NCBI GenBank assembly: GCA_049521735.1
Contig: JBEKON010000003.1
Location: 1-52,442, forward strand
Origin: Verrucomicrobiota bacterium
Lineage (GTDB): Bacteria > Verrucomicrobiota > Verrucomicrobiia > Limisphaerales > UBA11358
Reading direction: 5' to 3'
DNA: 52,442 nt
Shown here: piece after piece, positions 13,771 to 49,858 of the stretch
Numbering within the stretch: position 1 is the stretch's first letter
Layout: each line of letters begins with the position of its first letter
Position numbers and translations under genes: made by a program
The notes under the pieces: model-generated
Database searches by the model: none
Seen by the model: only the letters and a program-made list of their open reading frames with translations
What the model was told of the DNA's origin: nothing

Positions 13771-14628
13771 ATGTTCCCAGTGAAACTTTCTGAAATGCGG
13801 GAACTCTTGACGACGAGAGGGATTCAACTGACAAAATCCCTCGGCCAGAATTTTCTACACGACGGCAATCAACTTCGGCGCATCATTGAGGCGGCGGAAT
13901 TAAAAAAGACGGACAAAGTCCTTGAAATCGGGCCGGGACTTGGGCCGCTCACCGAATTGCTTTTGGAAAGAGCGGGTGAGGTTTTGGCCATCGAAAAGGA
14001 CGCCAGGCTCGTGGAATTTTTACGCGAGCGGTTTTCCAATCCGCAATCCGCAATTCGCAATTCGCAATTTGAACTGCTTCACGACGATGCGCTGGAATTT
14101 CTGAAACGCGAGCAAAGGGATTGGAGCGATTGGAAGCTCGTGGCCAATCTGCCGTATTCCGTCGCTTCGCCGATTCTCGTCGAACTGGCGCAATCGCCCA
14201 AACGACCGGAGCGGATGGTCGCAACGTTGCAACTCGAAGTCGCGCGGCGGCTTGCGGCCAAAGCCGGTGATGCGGATTACGGCGTGTTTACGTTGCTGAT
14301 TCAACTCGACTATGAATCCCGAAAGCCTTCGGGATTCAAGATTCCGGCAAGTTGCTTTTTTCCGGAACCGGACGTGGATTCGGCATGCGTGGTTTTGATT
14401 CGCCGCGCCACGCCGCTTTTGCCCGAAAGCCAGCGTGCGGCGTTTGTGAAAATTGTGAAGCGGGCGTTTTCGCAGCGGCGTAAAATGATGCTGAAACTGC
14501 TGCGCGAAGACTGGCTGGCGGAGAAATTGGAGCGGGCGTTTGAAGACTTACAGCGTTCGTCACAAGTGCGAGCGGAAGCGGTGGGCTTGGAACAATTTAT
14601 TGAGTTAACTCAAATATTGGCGGAGTAG
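13771..14628 (+). CDS. rsmA: 16S rRNA dimethyladenosine transferase
   Basis: KSLGQNFL, EIGPGLG, IEKD, VANLPY, F.P.PDVDS, FSQRRK. Confidence 0.96.
   Translation: MFPVKLSEMRELLTTRGIQLTKSLGQNFLHDGNQLRRIIEAAELKKTDKVLEIGPGLGPLTELLLERAGEVLAIEKDARLVEFLRERFSNPQSAIRNSQFELLHDDALEFLKREQRDWSDWKLVANLPYSVASPILVELAQSPKRPERMVATLQLEVARRLAAKAGDADYGVFTLLIQLDYESRKPSGFKIPASCFFPEPDVDSACVVLIRRATPLLPESQRAAFVKIVKRAFSQRRKMMLKLLREDWLAEKLERAFEDLQRSSQVRAEAVGLEQFIELTQILAE
14034..14068 (+). repeat. In-frame heptamer array inside rsmA
   Basis: TTCCAAT CCGCAAT CCGCAAT TCGCAAT TCGCAAT; encodes SNPQSAIRNSQ. Confidence 0.85.
14313..14338. repeat. Perfect 11-bp stem hairpin inside rsmA
   Basis: TGAATCCCGAA-AGCC-TTCGGGATTCA; partial related copy CGAAGGCTTCGGGATT at 49896-49911. 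Confidence 0.7.
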
Positions 14629-20798: not shown

Positions 20799-23747
20799 AT
20801 GGACTATAAAAACACATTGAATTTGCCGCACACTGATTTCCCGATGAGGGCCGATTTGGTGGCGCGCGAGCCTGACCGGTTGAAAAAATGGGAGACGGCG
20901 AGGCTTTACGAAAAAATCCAGGCTGACCACGCCAATGTGAAGGAAAAGTTTGTTCTGCACGACGGTCCGCCGTTCGCCAACGGCGACGTGCACATCGGCA
21001 CGGCACTGAACAAGATTCTCAAGGACATTATCGTTAAATACAAAACCCTGCGTGGGTTCAACGCGCCCTACATTCCGGGCTGGGATTGCCATGGATTGCC
21101 CATCGAATTCAAGGTTTCACAGGAGATGCGGAAAGGCCAGAAGTCAGAAGTCGGAAGTCAGAAGTTGGATTCTGATCGATTTTCGGCGTCCGCGATTCGC
21201 AAAGCTTGCGAAGTTTACGCCCGCAAGTTCATTGACATCCAGCGAACGCAATTCAAGCGTCTCGGCGTCTTTGGTGATTGGAACAATCCCTATCTCACGC
21301 TGAACAAGGAATATGAGGCTGACGAGTTGCGTCTGTTCGCCGACATCGTAGAAAAGGGTTTTGTCTATCGCGGCAAAAAGCCGGTCTATTGGAGCATTCC
21401 CTGTCGCACGGCGCTCGCTGAAGCCGAAGTTGAATATCAAGATCACGTCAGCCCCAGCATCTACGTGAAGTTTCCCATCGTCGGCCAGCCGAACACGTTT
21501 GTGCTGATCTGGACGACGACACCATGGACTTTGCTGGCGAATCTCGCCGTCGCTTACAACGACAAATTTCAATACGTCCAGGTCGAAGTCGGCGGTGAAA
21601 AATACATTTTATTCCGGGGGCTGCTGGCCGCCGTCGCGGAAAAATGCGGCTGGAGCGGTTATACCGAAACGTCGTTCGCAACCGAAAAACTTGCTGCGCT
21701 GCAGTTTCAGCATCCGTTCTGTAATCGCACTGGCAGGTTTTATCCCGCTGACTTTGTTGCCAGCGACACCGGCACCGGCTTCGTCCATATCGCGCCCGGC
21801 CACGGCTTGGAGGACTATCAACTCGGCTTGTCTGTCGGTCTGCCAATTTACTCGCCTGTGGATGATGATGGCAAGTTCATGCACACGAACGATTTACCTA
21901 TCGAGCAACAAATGCCCGCCGAGATGGTCGGGAAATCCATCCTCGAAAAACATGGCAAGAGTGAAGCGAATGAAGCGGTGCTGCATGAACTGCGCATTCG
22001 CAAGGCGCTGTTGCACCAGGAAGATTATAACCACAGCTATCCGCATTGCTGGCGCAGCAAGACGCCCATCATCTTCCGCGCGATGGATCAGTGGTTCATC
22101 GAGATTGACCATGAGAAATTCCGTGACCGTGCTCTGGCAGAAATTGACCGCGTCAAATGGGTGCCGGACTGGTGCATCAATCGCATCAAAAGCTTGGTGC
22201 AAACCCGTCCCGACTGGTGCATCTCGCGCCAACGCACTTGGGGCGTGCCGATTCCGGCGTTTTACGCCGCGAAAGGAAATCCGATTCTCGACGCGCAAAT
22301 CGTCCGTAACACCGCAAATTTGATTGAAAAGCATGGTTCAAATGTCTGGTTCGAAAAATCCGCTGCAGAACTTTGGTCACTGGTAAAACCGAAGAATTGG
22401 AAAGGCGCTACCCCCACCGCCAAATCCAACGACACGCTCGACGTGTGGATTGATTCGGGAAGTTCGTCGCGAAGTGTGCTGATGCGGCGGGCGGAATTGC
22501 ATCACAGCGTAGGACAGGCTTCCAGCCTGTCTCCATCTAAAAAGGAATTAGAGACAGGCAAGATGCCTGTCCTACAATGGCAAGCCGACGTTTACCTCGA
22601 AGGCTCCGACCAGCATCGCGGCTGGTTTCAATCGTCGCTGTTGCTGTCGCTTGCTGGCAACGGGGCCGCACCGTACAAGACCGTGCTGACCCACGGGTTC
22701 ATGGTGGATGCCGACCGCGAAAAAATTTCCAAGAGCAAACAAAGCCAGGGCGGCTACGAAAAACCGCAGACTGCCGAGGCTTACGTGAAAAAACACGGCG
22801 CGGATATTGTGCGTCTGTGGGTTTCGTCGCAGGATTTCCGCAACGACATCATCGTGAGCGAGGAACGCGTCAACAAGATCGCGGAAACCTACCGCGTTAT
22901 TCGCAACGCGCTGCGTTACCAACTTTCGAACCTTTACGATTTCGATCCGGCGAAACACACCGTTGCCGATGACAAGCTCACCGGCCTTGACCGCTGGATT
23001 TTAGCCAGATTCTCCTTGCTCGAACAACAGGTGTTCGGAGCATGGAAAACTTTCGAAGAAGCAATAGTCTCAAAGAAACAAGGGCACTATGACCTTTACG
23101 AATTTCACGCCGTTTATCAATGGATGAGTCAATTCATAGCCGTTGAATTGTCCTCTATCTATCACGACATCATTAAAGATCGCCTCTACACCGACCCGGC
23201 CAATTCGCATCGCCGGCGCTCGACGCAAACCGCGTTATACCGGCTCGTGACCGGCCTGTGCCAAATGCTCTCGCCGATTCTGGCTTTCACCACGGATGAG
23301 GCGTGGGAATTGATTCCTGGAAAGGTTGGGTCAGTCCATGAAACGGCTTGGCAACCAATGGGGCTGATCCGTCCAAGCGAGGAGGCAACTTTTTGGGGAG
23401 AAATGTTTGCTCTTCGAGATATTCTGCTGCTCAAGCTAGAAGAGAAGCGAAAAGGGAAGGTAATTGGTAAATCGCTTGAAGCAAAGATCCATTGGTTTCC
23501 CGAACGAGCCAAAAAACTTTCAGATTTGGTTTCAGATGGAAAGATACTCGAAGAGTTTCGTGAGTTGGTAAATGTTTCACAATTTGAGATTACGAATGAC
23601 CCGAAAGCAGAACTCGTTGTCCATGCCGACGGTAAGAAATGCGAGCGCTGCTGGCATTGGGAAACGGATGTTGGTTCGCACAAGGAGCATCCGACGATTT
23701 GCGGTCGTTGCATTGCTGCAGTGAAGGAATTTCAGGCCGGGCGATAG
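20799..23747 (+). CDS. ileS: Isoleucine--tRNA ligase (type 1)
   Basis: LHDGPPFANG, PGWDCHGLPIE, WTTTPWT, DWCISRQR.WG, EGSDQHRGWF, C-terminal CERC...CGRC zinc finger. Confidence 0.98.
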   Translation: MDYKNTLNLPHTDFPMRADLVAREPDRLKKWETARLYEKIQADHANVKEKFVLHDGPPFANGDVHIGTALNKILKDIIVKYKTLRGFNAPYIPGWDCHGLPIEFKVSQEMRKGQKSEVGSQKLDSDRFSASAIRKACEVYARKFIDIQRTQFKRLGVFGDWNNPYLTLNKEYEADELRLFADIVEKGFVYRGKKPVYWSIPCRTALAEAEVEYQDHVSPSIYVKFPIVGQPNTFVLIWTTTPWTLLANLAVAYNDKFQYVQVEVGGEKYILFRGLLAAVAEKCGWSGYTETSFATEKLAALQFQHPFCNRTGRFYPADFVASDTGTGFVHIAPGHGLEDYQLGLSVGLPIYSPVDDDGKFMHTNDLPIEQQMPAEMVGKSILEKHGKSEANEAVLHELRIRKALLHQEDYNHSYPHCWRSKTPIIFRAMDQWFIEIDHEKFRDRALAEIDRVKWVPDWCINRIKSLVQTRPDWCISRQRTWGVPIPAFYAAKGNPILDAQIVRNTANLIEKHGSNVWFEKSAAELWSLVKPKNWKGATPTAKSNDTLDVWIDSGSSSRSVLMRRAELHHSVGQASSLSPSKKELETGKMPVLQWQADVYLEGSDQHRGWFQSSLLLSLAGNGAAPYKTVLTHGFMVDADREKISKSKQSQGGYEKPQTAEAYVKKHGADIVRLWVSSQDFRNDIIVSEERVNKIAETYRVIRNALRYQLSNLYDFDPAKHTVADDKLTGLDRWILARFSLLEQQVFGAWKTFEEAIVSKKQGHYDLYEFHAVYQWMSQFIAVELSSIYHDIIKDRLYTDPANSHRRRSTQTALYRLVTGLCQMLSPILAFTTDEAWELIPGKVGSVHETAWQPMGLIRPSEEATFWGEMFALRDILLLKLEEKRKGKVIGKSLEAKIHWFPERAKKLSDLVSDGKILEEFRELVNVSQFEITNDPKAELVVHADGKKCERCWHWETDVGSHKEHPTICGRCIAAVKEFQAGR
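21138..21165 (+). repeat. In-frame heptamer array inside ileS
   Basis: CAGAAGT CAGAAGT CGGAAGT CAGAAGT; encodes QKSEVGSQK. Confidence 0.85.
22509..22575. mobile_element. GTAG-family REP doublet (REPIN-like) in frame within ileS
   Basis: GTAGGACAGGCTTCCAGCCTGTCTC and, inverted, GTAGGACAGGCATCTTGCCTGTCTC, separated by a 17-nt spacer. Confidence 0.85.
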
Positions 23748-40332: not shown

Positions 40333-41337
40333 ATGAACCAAAACCCGCATGTGGCCGTGGTCGGCGCCACGGGCGCCGTCGGCGTCGAAATGATCAAAAC
40401 GCTGGAAAAAAGAAGTTTTCCGGTGGGTAAACTGACGTTGCTCGCTTCGGCGCGTTCCGTCGGCAAGAAACTCAAATTTCGCGGCGAGGATATCACGGTC
40501 AGGGAGCTGAAGAAGGATTCCTTCAATGGCATTGATATTGCGTTGTTCAGCGCGGGCGGCGGCATTTCGAAAGAATTTGCGCCGATTGCGGCGAAGGCCG
40601 GCTGCGTGGTTGTGGACAATTCCAGTGCGTTTCGCATGGACAATTCCGTCCCGCTGGTGATTCCCGAAATCAACGCTTCGGACGTGAAGTGGCACAAGGG
40701 CATCATCGCCAATCCGAATTGCACCACGATTGTCACACTCATGGCGCTGTATCCGCTTCACAAGGCGTTTAACTGCAAACGCATCTTCGCGTCCAGTTAC
40801 CAGGCCGTGTCCGGCACCGGCGCGAAGGCGATCGAAGAGCTGAAACGCCAGGTGGGAGAAATTGTTTCCGGCAAGCCGGCCACGAAGGAGGTTTATCCGC
40901 ATCAAATCGCCTTCAACGTGCTGCCGCATGTGGATTCATTTCTGCCGAGCGGCTACACCAAGGAAGAAATGAAGATGGAAAACGAAGGCCGGAAAATCAT
41001 GCACCATCCGGCGTTTCGCGCGAGCGTGACGTGCGTGCGCGTGCCGGTTTATCGCGCGCATTCGGTGGCCGTCAGCGCGGAATTTGAAAAGCCGGTGAGT
41101 GTTGAAGCCGCGCGCGCCGTTTTGAAGAAAGCGCCCGGACTCGACGTCGTGGATGAACCGGCGAAGAATGAATATCCGATGCCACTGTTCACCTCGGAAA
41201 AATACAACTGCGAAGTTGGCCGCATTCGCAAGGATTGTGCGATGGACAACGGTTTGTGCTTCTGGGTCAGTGGCGATCAATTGCTCAAAGGTGCTGCGCT
41301 CAACGCGGTGCAAATCGCCGAAGAGTTGCTGAAGTAA
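40333..41337 (+). CDS. asd: Aspartate-semialdehyde dehydrogenase
   Basis: VGATGAVG, DNSSAFR, ANPNCTT, YQAVSG, CVRVP, LLKGAALN. Confidence 0.98.
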   Translation: MNQNPHVAVVGATGAVGVEMIKTLEKRSFPVGKLTLLASARSVGKKLKFRGEDITVRELKKDSFNGIDIALFSAGGGISKEFAPIAAKAGCVVVDNSSAFRMDNSVPLVIPEINASDVKWHKGIIANPNCTTIVTLMALYPLHKAFNCKRIFASSYQAVSGTGAKAIEELKRQVGEIVSGKPATKEVYPHQIAFNVLPHVDSFLPSGYTKEEMKMENEGRKIMHHPAFRASVTCVRVPVYRAHSVAVSAEFEKPVSVEAARAVLKKAPGLDVVDEPAKNEYPMPLFTSEKYNCEVGRIRKDCAMDNGLCFWVSGDQLLKGAALNAVQIAEELLK

Positions 41338-41342
41338 AATTC

Positions 41343-41450
41343 AACCGCAAAGACGCCAAGGCGCAGAGCAAAGTTTCAAATAAGGAAGGCAGGAATCGTG
41401 GAAATTTCGGTTCCTGCTTTCTTGCTTTCCTTATTAAATCCTTGGCGTCT
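41343..41450. repeat. Nested inverted repeats between convergent asd and exbD; probable bidirectional terminator
   Basis: AGACGCCAAGG / CCTTGGCGTCT perfect outer IR; inner AATAAGGAAGGCAGGAA / TTCCTGCTTTCTTGCTTTCCTTATT. Confidence 0.78.
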
Positions 41451-41455
41451 CGAAA

Positions 41456-41881
41456 TCATGGCTTGCCCGTTTCCTTCGTTTTCGTATAAGCGACGAGGGA
41501 TTTGATTTTCGCCTCGGCGGCGGCGTCGCGCACCTTCACTATTTTTCCCCACGGCGCTTTTTCGTCGGCGTTGATGGCCAGCACGAGCTGCGGATTTTTC
41601 GCTGATTGTTTCAGCAGTTCGCTCCGCAATTGCTCAAATGTCACCGGCAGCTTTTCCAGATAATAAATTCCCTTGGCGTCAATGCTCACAACGAACGGTG
41701 GATTGTTGGTCGCACCGGATTTTTGCGCCTGTGAAGATTCCGGCAGCGCGAGCCGTAACGCCGCCTGCTGCTTGAATGTTGTCGTCACCATCAAAAAAAT
41801 CACCAGCACGATGAGCACGTCAATCAGCGCGACGATGATGACGGCCGGCGCGGTCCGCCGTTTGTGCACGAGGAATCGCAT
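41456..41881 (-). CDS. exbD: Biopolymer transporter ExbD/TolR family
   Basis: ALIDVLIVLVIFLMV TM with Asp, L.LP, I.AD..AP. Confidence 0.88.
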   Translation of the reverse strand: MRFLVHKRRTAPAVIIVALIDVLIVLVIFLMVTTTFKQQAALRLALPESSQAQKSGATNNPPFVVSIDAKGIYYLEKLPVTFEQLRSELLKQSAKNPQLVLAINADEKAPWGKIVKVRDAAAEAKIKSLVAYTKTKETGKP

Positions 41882-47713: not shown

Positions 47714-49858
47714 CTATCTGAATTTCCCCGACTTGCGATAACTTGCAGGTTTTGTTTCCCCGGTTGACGAGGTATCGCCAATCATGCGTTTGAGTTCCTT
47801 GATCTGGTCGCGGAGCAGGGCGGCTTTCTCGAATTTCAAATCGTTTGCGGCAGTGAGCATTTCCGTTTCGAGTTCGCTGATGGTTTCGGTCAGGTCCACG
47901 TCCATGCCGGCGTCTTTGAGAACCGATGCGCCTGCTTCGCGCTTTGATTCGTAAGTGGCAAGGCTTTCTTCAACGGCGCGGCTGACACTGCGCGGCGTAA
48001 TATGGTGTTCCTTGTTGTAGGCAATTTGCTTTTGGCGGCGATATTCGGTGACGGCAAGAAATCGTTTGATGCTGTTGGTCATCACGTCGGCGTAGAGGAT
48101 CACTTCGCCGTTGAGATGGCGCGCGGCGCGGCCCGCGGTCTGAATCAGGCTCGTTTCGCTGCGCAGGAAACCTTCCTTGTCCGCGTCGAGAATCGCGACG
48201 AGCGAGACTTCCGGCAAATCGAGTCCCTCGCGCAACAAATTGATGCCGACGAGCACGTCAAACTCGCCCTTGCGCAACGCGCGCAAAATCTCGACGCGCT
48301 CGATGGCGTCAATCTCACTGTGGAGGTAGCGCACGTTCACGCCGATGTTGCGAAGATAATCGGTCAGTTCCTCGGAGGTGCGCTTGGTGAGCGTGGTGAC
48401 GAGCACGCGCTCCTTCGTGTCGGCGCGCTTGCGGCATTCCTCAATGAGATCGTCAATCTGGCCTTTGAGCGGTTTGAGCGTGACCTTTGGGTCAATAAGG
48501 CCGGTCGGTCGAACGACGAGTTCCACGACGCCGGGTTGTCCACCAACTCCCTCTCCTCCGCGAAGTGGAGGAGAGGGCTGGGGCGAGGAGGTGCTTTTGT
48601 TGAGCTGCCCCTCTCCCCGCTCCTGCGTCGCGGGGCGAGGGAGAATAAAACTTTGCCGCGACCATTCCAATTCCCGTGCTGCCGGGGTCGCACTGGCGTA
48701 AATCGTCTGGTCTTGCATCGCCTGGAATTCCAGAAAGTTCAACGGCCGATTATCCAGCGCGCTCGGCAGACGGAACCCGTAATCCACCAGCACCGTTTTG
48801 CGCGAGCGGTCGCCCTCGAACATCCCGCCGATTTGCGGCACGGTGGCGTGCGATTCGTCAATCACCAGCAGGTAATCGTCCGGGAAAAAATCAATGACGG
48901 TCGCCGGACGCGAGCCGGGCGGGCGGCCGGCGATGTGCCGGGAATAATTCTCGATGCCGGAACAAACGCCCATTTCCTCCATCATTTCGAGGTCGTATTC
49001 GGTCCGCTGCTTGATGCGCTGGGCCTCGAGCAGTTTGCCGTGTTTCTCGAACCACGCGATGCGCTCGCCGAGTTCCTCGCGGATGGTGAGGATGGCGCGC
49101 TTCAGTTTGTCGCTGGTGGTGACGAATTGTTTTCCTGGAAAAATGGTGACCGCGTCGAGCGATTCGATTTTATTTCCTGTGAGCGGCTCGAACCGCGTGA
49201 GGCGCTCGATTTGCTCGCCGAAAAATTCAATGCGCAGCGCGTCTTCGCGACCGGCAGGATGGATTTCCACCGTGTCGCCGCGCACGCGGAAATTGCCGCG
49301 CTCAAACGCGATGTCGTTCCGGTCGTATTGCAAATCCACCAGGCGCGCGAGGAATTGCTCGCGCGAAATTTCCTGCCCGACGCGAATGGGAATGATCATC
49401 GCCTCGTAATCCTCCTTGCTGCCGATGCCGTAGATGCACGACACGCTGGCGACGACAATCACATCGCGCCGCGAAAACAGCGAACTCATGGTCGAGAGCC
49501 GCATCCGCTCGATTTCCTCGTTCCGGCTGGAATCCTTTTCGATGAATGTGTCAGTGCGTGGGATGTAGGCTTCCGGCTGGTAATAATCAAAATAGCTGAC
49601 GAAATATTCGACGGCGTTGTTGGGAAAAAAACTTTTAAACTCGGCGTAAAGCTGCGCGGCGAGCGTCTTGTTGTGCGAGATGACCAGCGTCGGCTTGTCC
49701 ACGTTTTTGATGACATTGGCGATGGTGAACGTTTTGCCGGAACCGGTGACGCCGAGCAGCGTTTGATGCCGTGCACCGGACAAAATGCCGTCGGTCAGCT
49801 TCGTAATCGCCTGCGGCTGGTCACCGGCCGGTTGATAGGGCGCTACAAGTTCGAACAT
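47714..49858 (-). CDS. uvrB: Excinuclease ABC subunit B
   Basis: GVTGSGKT, YFVSYFDYYQPEAY, DESH, SATP, RPTGL, REGLD, QTAGRAAR, C-terminal UVR domain. Confidence 0.99.
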   Translation of the reverse strand: MFELVAPYQPAGDQPQAITKLTDGILSGARHQTLLGVTGSGKTFTIANVIKNVDKPTLVISHNKTLAAQLYAEFKSFFPNNAVEYFVSYFDYYQPEAYIPRTDTFIEKDSSRNEEIERMRLSTMSSLFSRRDVIVVASVSCIYGIGSKEDYEAMIIPIRVGQEISREQFLARLVDLQYDRNDIAFERGNFRVRGDTVEIHPAGREDALRIEFFGEQIERLTRFEPLTGNKIESLDAVTIFPGKQFVTTSDKLKRAILTIREELGERIAWFEKHGKLLEAQRIKQRTEYDLEMMEEMGVCSGIENYSRHIAGRPPGSRPATVIDFFPDDYLLVIDESHATVPQIGGMFEGDRSRKTVLVDYGFRLPSALDNRPLNFLEFQAMQDQTIYASATPAARELEWSRQSFILPRPATQERGEGQLNKSTSSPQPSPPLRGGEGVGGQPGVVELVVRPTGLIDPKVTLKPLKGQIDDLIEECRKRADTKERVLVTTLTKRTSEELTDYLRNIGVNVRYLHSEIDAIERVEILRALRKGEFDVLVGINLLREGLDLPEVSLVAILDADKEGFLRSETSLIQTAGRAARHLNGEVILYADVMTNSIKRFLAVTEYRRQKQIAYNKEHHITPRSVSRAVEESLATYESKREAGASVLKDAGMDVDLTETISELETEMLTAANDLKFEKAALLRDQIKELKRMIGDTSSTGETKPASYRKSGKFR
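48547..48643. mobile_element. CCCTCTCC double-hairpin element in frame within uvrB
   Basis: CCCTCTCCTCC / GGAGGAGAGGG (perfect 11 bp) and CCCTCTCCCCGC / GCGGGGCGAGGG (11 of 12). Confidence 0.82.

Follow-up and report, generated by a model that had tools for sequence, protein, structure and literature searches.

A REPIN doublet within the ileS reading frame

The window analyzed here is the whole of a 52,442-nt stretch from a Verrucomicrobiota bacterium (contig JBEKON010000003.1, our contig C3, of assembly GCA_049521735.1), and its source genome (G000) is a 2.08-Mb metagenome-assembled genome (MAG) in 79 contigs that is 92.4% complete. Our subject is a pair of inverted repetitive extragenic palindromic (REP) units, together a REP doublet forming a hairpin (REPIN), that lies inside the isoleucine–tRNA ligase gene ileS. 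The features of the locus are the following:

20799..23747, + strand: ileS (isoleucine--tRNA ligase), 982 aa, intact, from open reading frame (ORF) and translation and from TIGR00392
22509..22575, + strand: REPIN doublet, 67 nt, read in frame as VGQASSLSPSKKELETGKMPVLQ (IleRS residues 571-593)
22509..22531, + strand: left REP unit, with GTAG head, 7-bp stem GACAGGC/GCCTGTC and loop TTCCA
22532..22552, + strand: 21-nt purine-rich spacer (TCCATCTAAAAAGGAATTAGA), coding for most of SPSKKELE
22553..22575, - strand: right REP unit, inverted, with GTAG head on the minus strand, identical stem and loop ATCTT

Written out, positions 22509-22575 read GTAGGACAGGC-TTCCA-GCCTGTC, the 21-nt spacer, and GACAGGC-AAGAT-GCCTGTCCTAC. 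Each unit has a perfect stem of 7-8 bp, and the 25-nt arms of the inverted pair are 88% complementary. The pattern GACAGGC-N5-GCCTGTC was observed twice in the window against an expectation of 0.01, and two or more copies arose in none of 100 shuffles. The two inverted GTAG units with perfect stems that a first-pass annotation of this DNA had described are therefore borne out, by the sequence itself, by these shuffles, and by the family of 67 units presented below. VGQASSLSPSKKELETGKMPVLQ is encoded in frame within the 982-aa ORF, immediately preceding WQADVYLEGSDQHRGWF; in a tryptic digest, the predicted junction peptides would end in ...SLSPSK on the left and run through ...MPVLQWQADVYLEGSDQHR on the right. 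When a 75-nt stretch at the element was folded as RNA, the predicted energy was -41.8 kcal/mol (z = -9.1). A search of the element against Rfam returned no family at the gathering score, and the sub-threshold look-alikes, all miRNA precursors, were dismissed as the chance matches that any long hairpin attracts.

The host gene is intact and is the only ileS found

The ileS ORF scored 818.6 bits against TIGR00392 (cut-off 621.4), with residues 14-898 covering model positions 2-858 of 861. The closest solved relative of the protein is 8c9e (E = 3.6e-223), and the alignment with this structure contains a 25-residue gap that coincides exactly with the REPIN insert. Comparison with G034, another species-level genome of the genus, gave a ratio of non-synonymous to synonymous change (omega) of 0.11-0.18. 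A search of the source genome found no second ileS, the other matches being valS, leuS, and three matches to REPIN-coded peptide. The earlier placement of an in-frame doublet in the catalytic domain thus stands, in the Rossmann-fold part of the only ileS found, and the possibility raised at that time, of an inactive copy beside a second ileS, is countered by the intact ORF and by the lack of another match. IleRS relatives were found in MAGs that carry the label Verrucomicrobiota, Limisphaerales, or Pedosphaera.

DNA of the window is present in peat metagenomes. Both insert junctions are covered without any difference by Logan contigs from four peat-metagenome runs, each from a different study, and the source sample may be among them; this speaks to the earlier concern that the insert might be absent from raw reads. 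None of these contigs spans the whole element, and their breaks fall inside the repeated arm. Joints in the Logan contigs (e.g. 22456 to 22608) were considered as empty alleles and rejected, given their short sides and 88% likeness; they probably derive from the ileS of other species. The search for an empty allele proposed in the first-pass annotation yielded none within the species, and orthologs that lack the insert are common in other species.

The doublet belongs to a REP family located largely inside genes

The full 23-nt REP unit is present in 67 copies in the source genome at ≤1 mismatch (56 of them perfect), distributed over at least 30 contigs, and a reversed control sequence gave 0. 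The units group into 34 inverted doublets of 64-131 nt and 8 singles. Among the 85 units found at ≤4 mismatches, 73 start with GTAG, and TTCCA is the most frequent loop type (25/85). The arms are near-invariant and carry about six canonical loops (TTCCA, ATCTT, GTCCC, ATCCT, GTCTC, and GTCGC); the spacers range from 18 to 85 nt and agree only at their ends, opening with TCC, TCT, or TCA and closing with GA. Across the genus, the 23-nt unit, often GTGG-headed, occurs in 46 of 61 sampled genomes with up to 91 copies, a count that includes the source genome and G073 (flagged unpublished) and becomes 44/59 without both.

Most of the doublets in the source genome (29/34) sit within open frames of 283-1224 aa that extend past the doublet in both directions. 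NCBIfam assignments identified 27 doublet host genes, and in all except a dsbD-like gene (26/27) the family match flanks the insert on both sides:

tRNA synthetase hosts (8): argS, ileS, glnS, leuS, valS, alaS, pheS, pheT
DNA-repair hosts (8): recG, uvrA, uvrC, mfd, ligA, mutS (two doublets), xseA, dinG/yoaA (two doublets)
Remaining hosts: hisC, trpC, gcvP, clpB, carB, rfaF, dsbD-like, hypF, ispG, argE/dapE-like, bioA

As a control for placement, 20,000 random 71-nt windows were scored in the same way as the doublets. Frames of ≥250 aa contain 29/34 doublets (85%) versus 78% of random windows (P = 0.21), such that the family is not depleted from genes, and longer frames are enriched, holding 24/34 doublets versus 36.6% of random windows at ≥500 aa (P = 6e-5) and 14/34 versus 15.4% at ≥800 aa (P = 3e-4). 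tRNA synthetase genes would be expected to account for about 2% of a genome of 2.08 Mb, and they hold 8 of the 29 intragenic doublets. The GTAG head is read in phase 0 (VGQ..., Val-Gly) in 21 intragenic doublets and in phase 1 (RRTG...) in 8, and the phase in which TAG would act as a stop is used by none (0/29). Because 29/34 doublets are intragenic and show no depletion relative to random placement, "extragenic" is a misnomer for this REP family, and the earlier description of the ileS doublet as an element of extragenic type does not hold.

The ileS insertion appears old and occupies a permissive loop

The same element is found at the same ileS site in the source genome, in G034, and in L054, a named MAG record. 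Its arms are identical at 46/46 bases in all three, and its spacer has the same length throughout, differing at 2/21 positions in G034 and 3/21 in L054, a divergence that resembles that of the coding flanks (81-89% identity). Between the source genome and G034, the synonymous divergence (dS) of ileS is 1.1-1.4, compared with a proportion of synonymous differences (pS) of 0.057 within the insert. Since the same element and site recur in other species with ileS synonymous sites near saturation, the insertion is, as judged from these comparisons, old and shared, not recent. The first-pass annotation had taken the perfect stems as a sign of recent insertion; arms that remain identical at near-saturated dS instead indicate that perfect stems reflect constraint, not youth.

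The loop that receives the insert, between DVWIDSG and YLEGSDQHRGWF, varies widely among 96 motif-anchored ortholog rows, in which some genomes appear twice (e.g. L190 and L192; L035 and L059). In 20 rows it measures 24 aa; in 28 others it reaches 37-55 aa and carries other REP dimers or heptamer arrays. L062 has a GACAGGC-family element in this loop with a spacer 9 nt longer, other genomes carry sister REP families at the same point (stems GCGCAGGC or GGGCAGGC, with the same loop types), and still others contain 7-nt tandem arrays. Elsewhere in the protein, at about IleRS residue 439 (window position ~22113), a different in-frame repeat insert (e.g. VGDDVRSLKSKSEI..QSLVTS) follows IDH in many relatives (L035, L037, L039, L042, and L044); the source genome has no insert at that position. 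By these alignments, the ileS loop and the second loop near residue 439 are evidently places in IleRS where inserts persist.

Arms and spacers evolve differently at sites shared between species

For 16 of the 58 REP elements of G034, both flanks map to one REP-bearing place in the source genome, and these shared sites include ileS, glnS, leuS, mfd, both mutS sites, ispG, bioA, trpC, carB, rfaF, and both DinG sites. We compared 15 pairs, leaving out the single unit at C4:4159. Length is equal in 13/15, and the changes observed amount to 6 nt inside a gene (mutS) and 1 nt in intergenic DNA (C35). Over the 15 pairs, identity is 92.3% for the arms, 74.4% for the spacers, and 75.7% for the 300-nt flanks. 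Codon-wise comparison of the 12 equal-length intragenic pairs (without mutS 2885, C35, and leuS, which lies at a contig end) gave the following proportions of synonymous (pS) and non-synonymous (pN) differences:

Flanks: pS 0.59, pN 0.25, omega 0.27 (the ungapped comparison may inflate this pN, and the codon-aligned ileS and DinG figures are a safer baseline)
Spacers: pS 0.48, pN 0.23, omega 0.37
Arms: pS 0.13, pN 0.06, omega 0.43

The spacers, with pN below pS, therefore change as coding sequence does, which is best read as a sign of translation. The arms are conserved as nucleotides, synonymous sites included. Most differences between arms are switches from one canonical loop type to another (e.g. 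C20:37189, C21:48691, and C7:3714), with 8/30 arms differing at two or more loop bases. Stems show compensatory changes (e.g. C29:2219 and C10:5947), and in bioA (G034 L217 versus C32:23577-23644 in the source genome) both heads have changed jointly (GCAGG...CCTGC) with the long hairpin still paired, a possible sign of re-copying in place or of selection for the structure of the whole doublet. More broadly, we infer that the arm pattern reflects either re-copying or selection on the hairpins.

A candidate RAYT is nested in a DinG/YoaA helicase

The source genome contains four Y1_Tnp matches. One of them is a candidate REP-associated tyrosine transposase (RAYT) flanked by the same REP, as had been proposed as a check in the first-pass annotation, within a segment spanning C29:1523-2288 (locus L145, 1-2949):

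C29:1523-1592: left flanking REPIN doublet
C29:1592-2218: RAYT candidate
C29:2219-2288: right flanking REPIN doublet

The RAYT and both flanking doublets are read through in frame in a 983-aa DinG/YoaA helicase, and no other DinG was found in the genome. The domain scored 28.6 bits against Pfam Y1_Tnp (PF01797; cut-off 23). Its NHVHC and YIRENPVK align weakly (E = 0.018) to HMHC and YIYINPVK of the E. coli TnpA-REP structure 4er8, and the aligned Tyr is presumably the catalytic tyrosine. Omega for the RAYT is 0.17-0.18 against G034 and G017, compared with 0.07-0.14 for the DinG halves, and by this measure the flanked RAYT is evidently under purifying selection. It may be the enzyme that mobilized the family.

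The DinG match runs through the RAYT in 3/41 genomes (G000, G034, and G017); in most others 12-90 nt separate the DinG halves, and the frames measure about 707-750 aa. A large protein collection contained 1075 longer proteins matching the RAYT part at E ≤1e-10. Among the best 120 of these, 92 carry the RAYT nested between the TSATL and GTPFDY motifs of DinG, bordered on each side by REPIN-coded peptides, and 118 keep the HUH motif. Literature searches, partly swamped by unrelated matches, turned up no account of a RAYT lodged within a host gene such as a helicase gene. Quentin et al. 2018 state that family members of excessive length were set aside in their study as fusions or errors.

Homologues of the DinG-nested RAYT (49-50% identity) also occur in frame in ClpB (G032, locus L182), at the position of the REPIN site in ClpB of the source genome, and within a protein of 1414-1441 aa that shows a weak fucokinase-like match (G030 and G039; loci L181 and L183). 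The reading frame of the 1007-aa PriA on contig C8 (locus L184, 2052-5072; see also L185 and L186) includes a second HUH domain that is RAYT-like (NF047646, 78 bits); this domain is kept in G017 and G014, and its flanking peptides look repeat-coded. A stand-alone, IS200-like protein of 150 aa at C37:2174-2515 (Y1, 103.6 bits) was rejected as the cognate RAYT, the nearest family REP being ~11 kb away.

Possible explanations for the ileS element

We consider it probable that the ileS element is an old, vertically inherited passenger of a RAYT-associated REPIN family, tolerated and translated with its host gene. Under this explanation, two inverted GTAG-tagged REP hairpins and their spacer would have entered a naturally hypervariable loop of the IleRS Rossmann fold, between the DVWIDSGSS and YLEGSDQHRGWF motifs, and been passed on vertically. 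The element would be carried on the ileS transcript and would add 23 residues to the protein, an addition tolerated by the enzyme and presumably neutral in effect, and its arms would be kept by constraint on the DNA or RNA sequence, through hairpin selection or RAYT-linked re-copying. It would survive because it keeps the frame, with GTAG read as Val-Gly and never in the TAG phase, and because this loop would be among the few parts of ileS in which added residues do no harm. From the frame and the coding-like spacers, the ileS doublet is in all likelihood translated.

Several points weigh against this explanation. The variation in spacer length and sequence between copies does not fit a REPIN that is copied as one fixed unit, and the C29 RAYT scored 73.6 bits against NCBIfam REP_Tyr_transpos (NF047646), under the cut-off of 80. 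The case for production of the 23 residues is built on sequence, and the very stable hairpin (-41.8 kcal/mol) might carry a cost within an essential mRNA. In an AlphaFold2 model of IleRS, computed from a 40-sequence alignment (mean pLDDT 70.4), the catalytic core (47-101 and 549-656) and the insert fell below 50, and the core was modelled too poorly to locate the loop with respect to the active site. The genome, at 92.4% completeness, leaves some room for a second ileS. Finally, conservation of the arms at synonymous sites could equally mean a function at the level of the host, which a merely tolerated passenger does not predict.

This last point leads to the most substantial rival, which we regard as unlikely while giving it more weight than any other: the element has been co-opted, such that its hairpins (whether through structure in the mRNA or DNA or as a site bound by the RAYT) or its peptide serve the host, for example by tuning ileS translation or mRNA stability. 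Co-option would account for the very stable structure, for an arm pS of 0.13 versus 0.59 in the flanks, for arms identical at 46/46 bases over three species at dS >1, and for the compensatory stem changes at C29:2219 and C10:5947 and in G034 bioA (GCAGG/CCTGC). Yet ileS does not need the element, as the loop is 24 aa long in 20/96 rows or filled with unrelated inserts; equal arm conservation at all shared sites in unrelated genes marks a property of the family and not of ileS; and the loop-type switches at shared sites suit re-copying better than a site-specific function. A hairpin with such stability and well-defined ends might alternatively be removed before or during translation, by intron-like excision or ribosomal bypass, to leave an enzyme without the 23 residues, all the more since the peptide is deduced from the DNA. 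We think this improbable. All 29 intragenic doublets are stop-free and frame-keeping, with the TAG phase at 0/29, which would be unneeded if the insert were removed; in the spacers, synonymous changes outweigh non-synonymous ones; the one length change within a gene is divisible by 3; and the Rfam search gave no family at the gathering score. Twenty-three residues are also far too short for an intein.

Two further rivals concern the history and the reality of the insert. Perfect stems would be expected of a recent insertion, and the different REP families found in the same loop elsewhere could mean targeted insertion, that is, independent arrival at a hotspot in each lineage; we judge either course about as improbable as removal of the insert. 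The spacers in the source genome, G034, and L054 are of equal length and alignable, diverging at 2-3/21 positions much as the flanks do (81-89% identity), and 13/15 shared elements are equal in length despite the wide variation of spacer length within the family. That the gene is a dead copy, or the insert an assembly artefact of a metagenome bin, is scarcely credible to us, even for a 79-contig MAG with Logan contigs that break within the repeat, given the intact ORF, the whole-length match to the ileS model, omega of 0.11-0.18, no other ileS found, both junctions present in four runs, and the same arrangement in the independent assemblies G034 and L054.

Relation to known systems and significance

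Di Nocera, De Gregorio and Rocco 2013 (BMC Genomics 14:522, PMC3733652) reported GTAG REPs inside genes, most of them in the verrucomicrobium Opitutus terrae. According to that paper, intragenic dimers code for 20-30 residues, their hosts are enriched in DNA synthesis and repair functions (uvrA, DNA ligase), tRNA synthetase genes are hosts in three species, the TAG of the head can act as the stop codon of a neighbour, and GTGG head variants exist; the authors likened these dimers to Rickettsia palindromic elements (RPEs). The present family resembles theirs in its GTAG-headed short palindromes, arranged mostly as inverted dimers, and in its repair and synthetase hosts. It differs in location, since in their account REPs are mostly intergenic, whereas 29/34 doublets here are intragenic with no depletion relative to random placement, and in the evidence available, since their paper offers no cross-species test and we find sites shared at dS >1 with conserved arms. 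The earlier view of ileS as the clearest case of such an element in an essential enzyme accordingly gives way on two grounds: the ileS doublet is one of 29 intragenic doublets in a set of 34, and intragenic GTAG REP dimers, including those in tRNA synthetase genes of other species, had already been reported in PMC3733652.

REPIN-RAYT systems of Pseudomonas and enterobacteria were described by Bertels and Rainey 2011 (PMC3116915). Classic REPINs are extragenic, and a later preprint ('Ancient Darwinian replicators', bioRxiv 10.1101/2021.07.10.451892) regards their insertion into a gene as inactivating. As in these systems, inverted REPs form a larger hairpin, the cognate RAYT is flanked by the repeats, and persistence is long and vertical. 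Unlike in the classic systems, the spacer is unconserved between copies in the source genome, and both the elements and the RAYT form part of the reading frames of genes. Inteins provide an analogy and nothing closer, as selfish inserts sheltered in conserved housekeeping genes (replication, repair, synthetases) where imprecise loss would be lethal; the ileS element, unlike an intein, has no splicing domain, and its 23 residues would be expected to stay in the protein.

RPEs, attributed to Ogata et al., are reportedly palindromic repeats found in frame in genes that still seem functional. The ileS element resembles them as a probably tolerated and translated selfish insert. RPEs end in CGTC, not GTAG, and have no dedicated transposase, according to PMC3733652. 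Given its GTAG head and the differences in host phylum and sequence, the present family is not the same as the RPEs.

Taken alone, the ileS case is one more presumably translated REP dimer in a loop of an essential enzyme, and annotators should not call such genes broken. Relative to the published literature that we found, three features go further: a family that is almost wholly intragenic, arms that are conserved while their coding surroundings saturate, and a DinG-nested RAYT. Perfect REP stems are consequently no clock, as arms stay identical while the surrounding synonymous sites saturate. The 16 sites common to two species, with their coding-like spacers, form a clean natural data set on the upkeep of REP arms, and a REPIN population that lies with its RAYT almost wholly in genes contradicts the premise that such systems persist only in intergenic DNA. 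The permissive loops marked by the inserts offer ready tolerant insertion sites for the engineering of synthetases and repair enzymes.

A broader proposal, which we advance tentatively and would not yet favor, is that in this verrucomicrobial lineage the REPIN-RAYT system as a whole left intergenic DNA for permissive loops within long housekeeping genes, where occupied sites pass from species to species by inheritance even at saturated synonymous divergence and the arms are kept or overwritten in place, as the swaps of canonical loop types at shared sites and the co-varying stems would reflect. With the same reservation, such a move might cover the 29/34 doublets together with the transposase itself (DinG/YoaA-nested in at least 92 protein clusters), all in frame. 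If true, it would imply that fixed sites are actively copy-corrected in a RAYT-dependent manner and that essential genes shelter the elements from deletion, much as they shelter inteins. We found no paper describing a REPIN-RAYT life inside housekeeping genes with in-place upkeep of the arms.

Other repeat families in the source genome

At sites where G034 has a GACAGGC-family element, the source genome in several cases carries palindromic doublets of different families (GTAGGGCGCGC..., GTGGGGCGAGC..., and GGAGGAGAGGG-type hairpins), and several REP families therefore coexist in it. At other sites with a REPIN doublet in G034, it carries a 7-nt tandem array (e.g. CAATCCG). The positions in the source genome are:

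C2:6331-6411: other palindromic doublet family
C14:50056-50145: other palindromic doublet family
Window 48532-48657: other palindromic doublet family
Window 41335-41458: other palindromic doublet family
Window 14034-14075 (within ORF 13771-14628): 7-nt tandem array
C43:14449-14522: 7-nt tandem array
C32:22399-22461: 7-nt tandem array
C59:19350-19417: 7-nt tandem array
C30:6974-7026: 7-nt tandem array
C13:20317-20348: 7-nt tandem array

REP dimers and heptamer arrays thus seem to share permissive or target sites, and the ileS loop alternates likewise between genomes. A further repeat-coded peptide family (LTRPAATLSPPNGERDGARGA and variants) recurs in the source genome on C6 (uvrA), C7 (mfd, twice), C9 (the N-terminus of ligA), and C8 (priA), and low-complexity runs (e.g. 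SKLKTQNSKL and STFNLQPST) recur within its uvrA, mfd, ligA, and priA.

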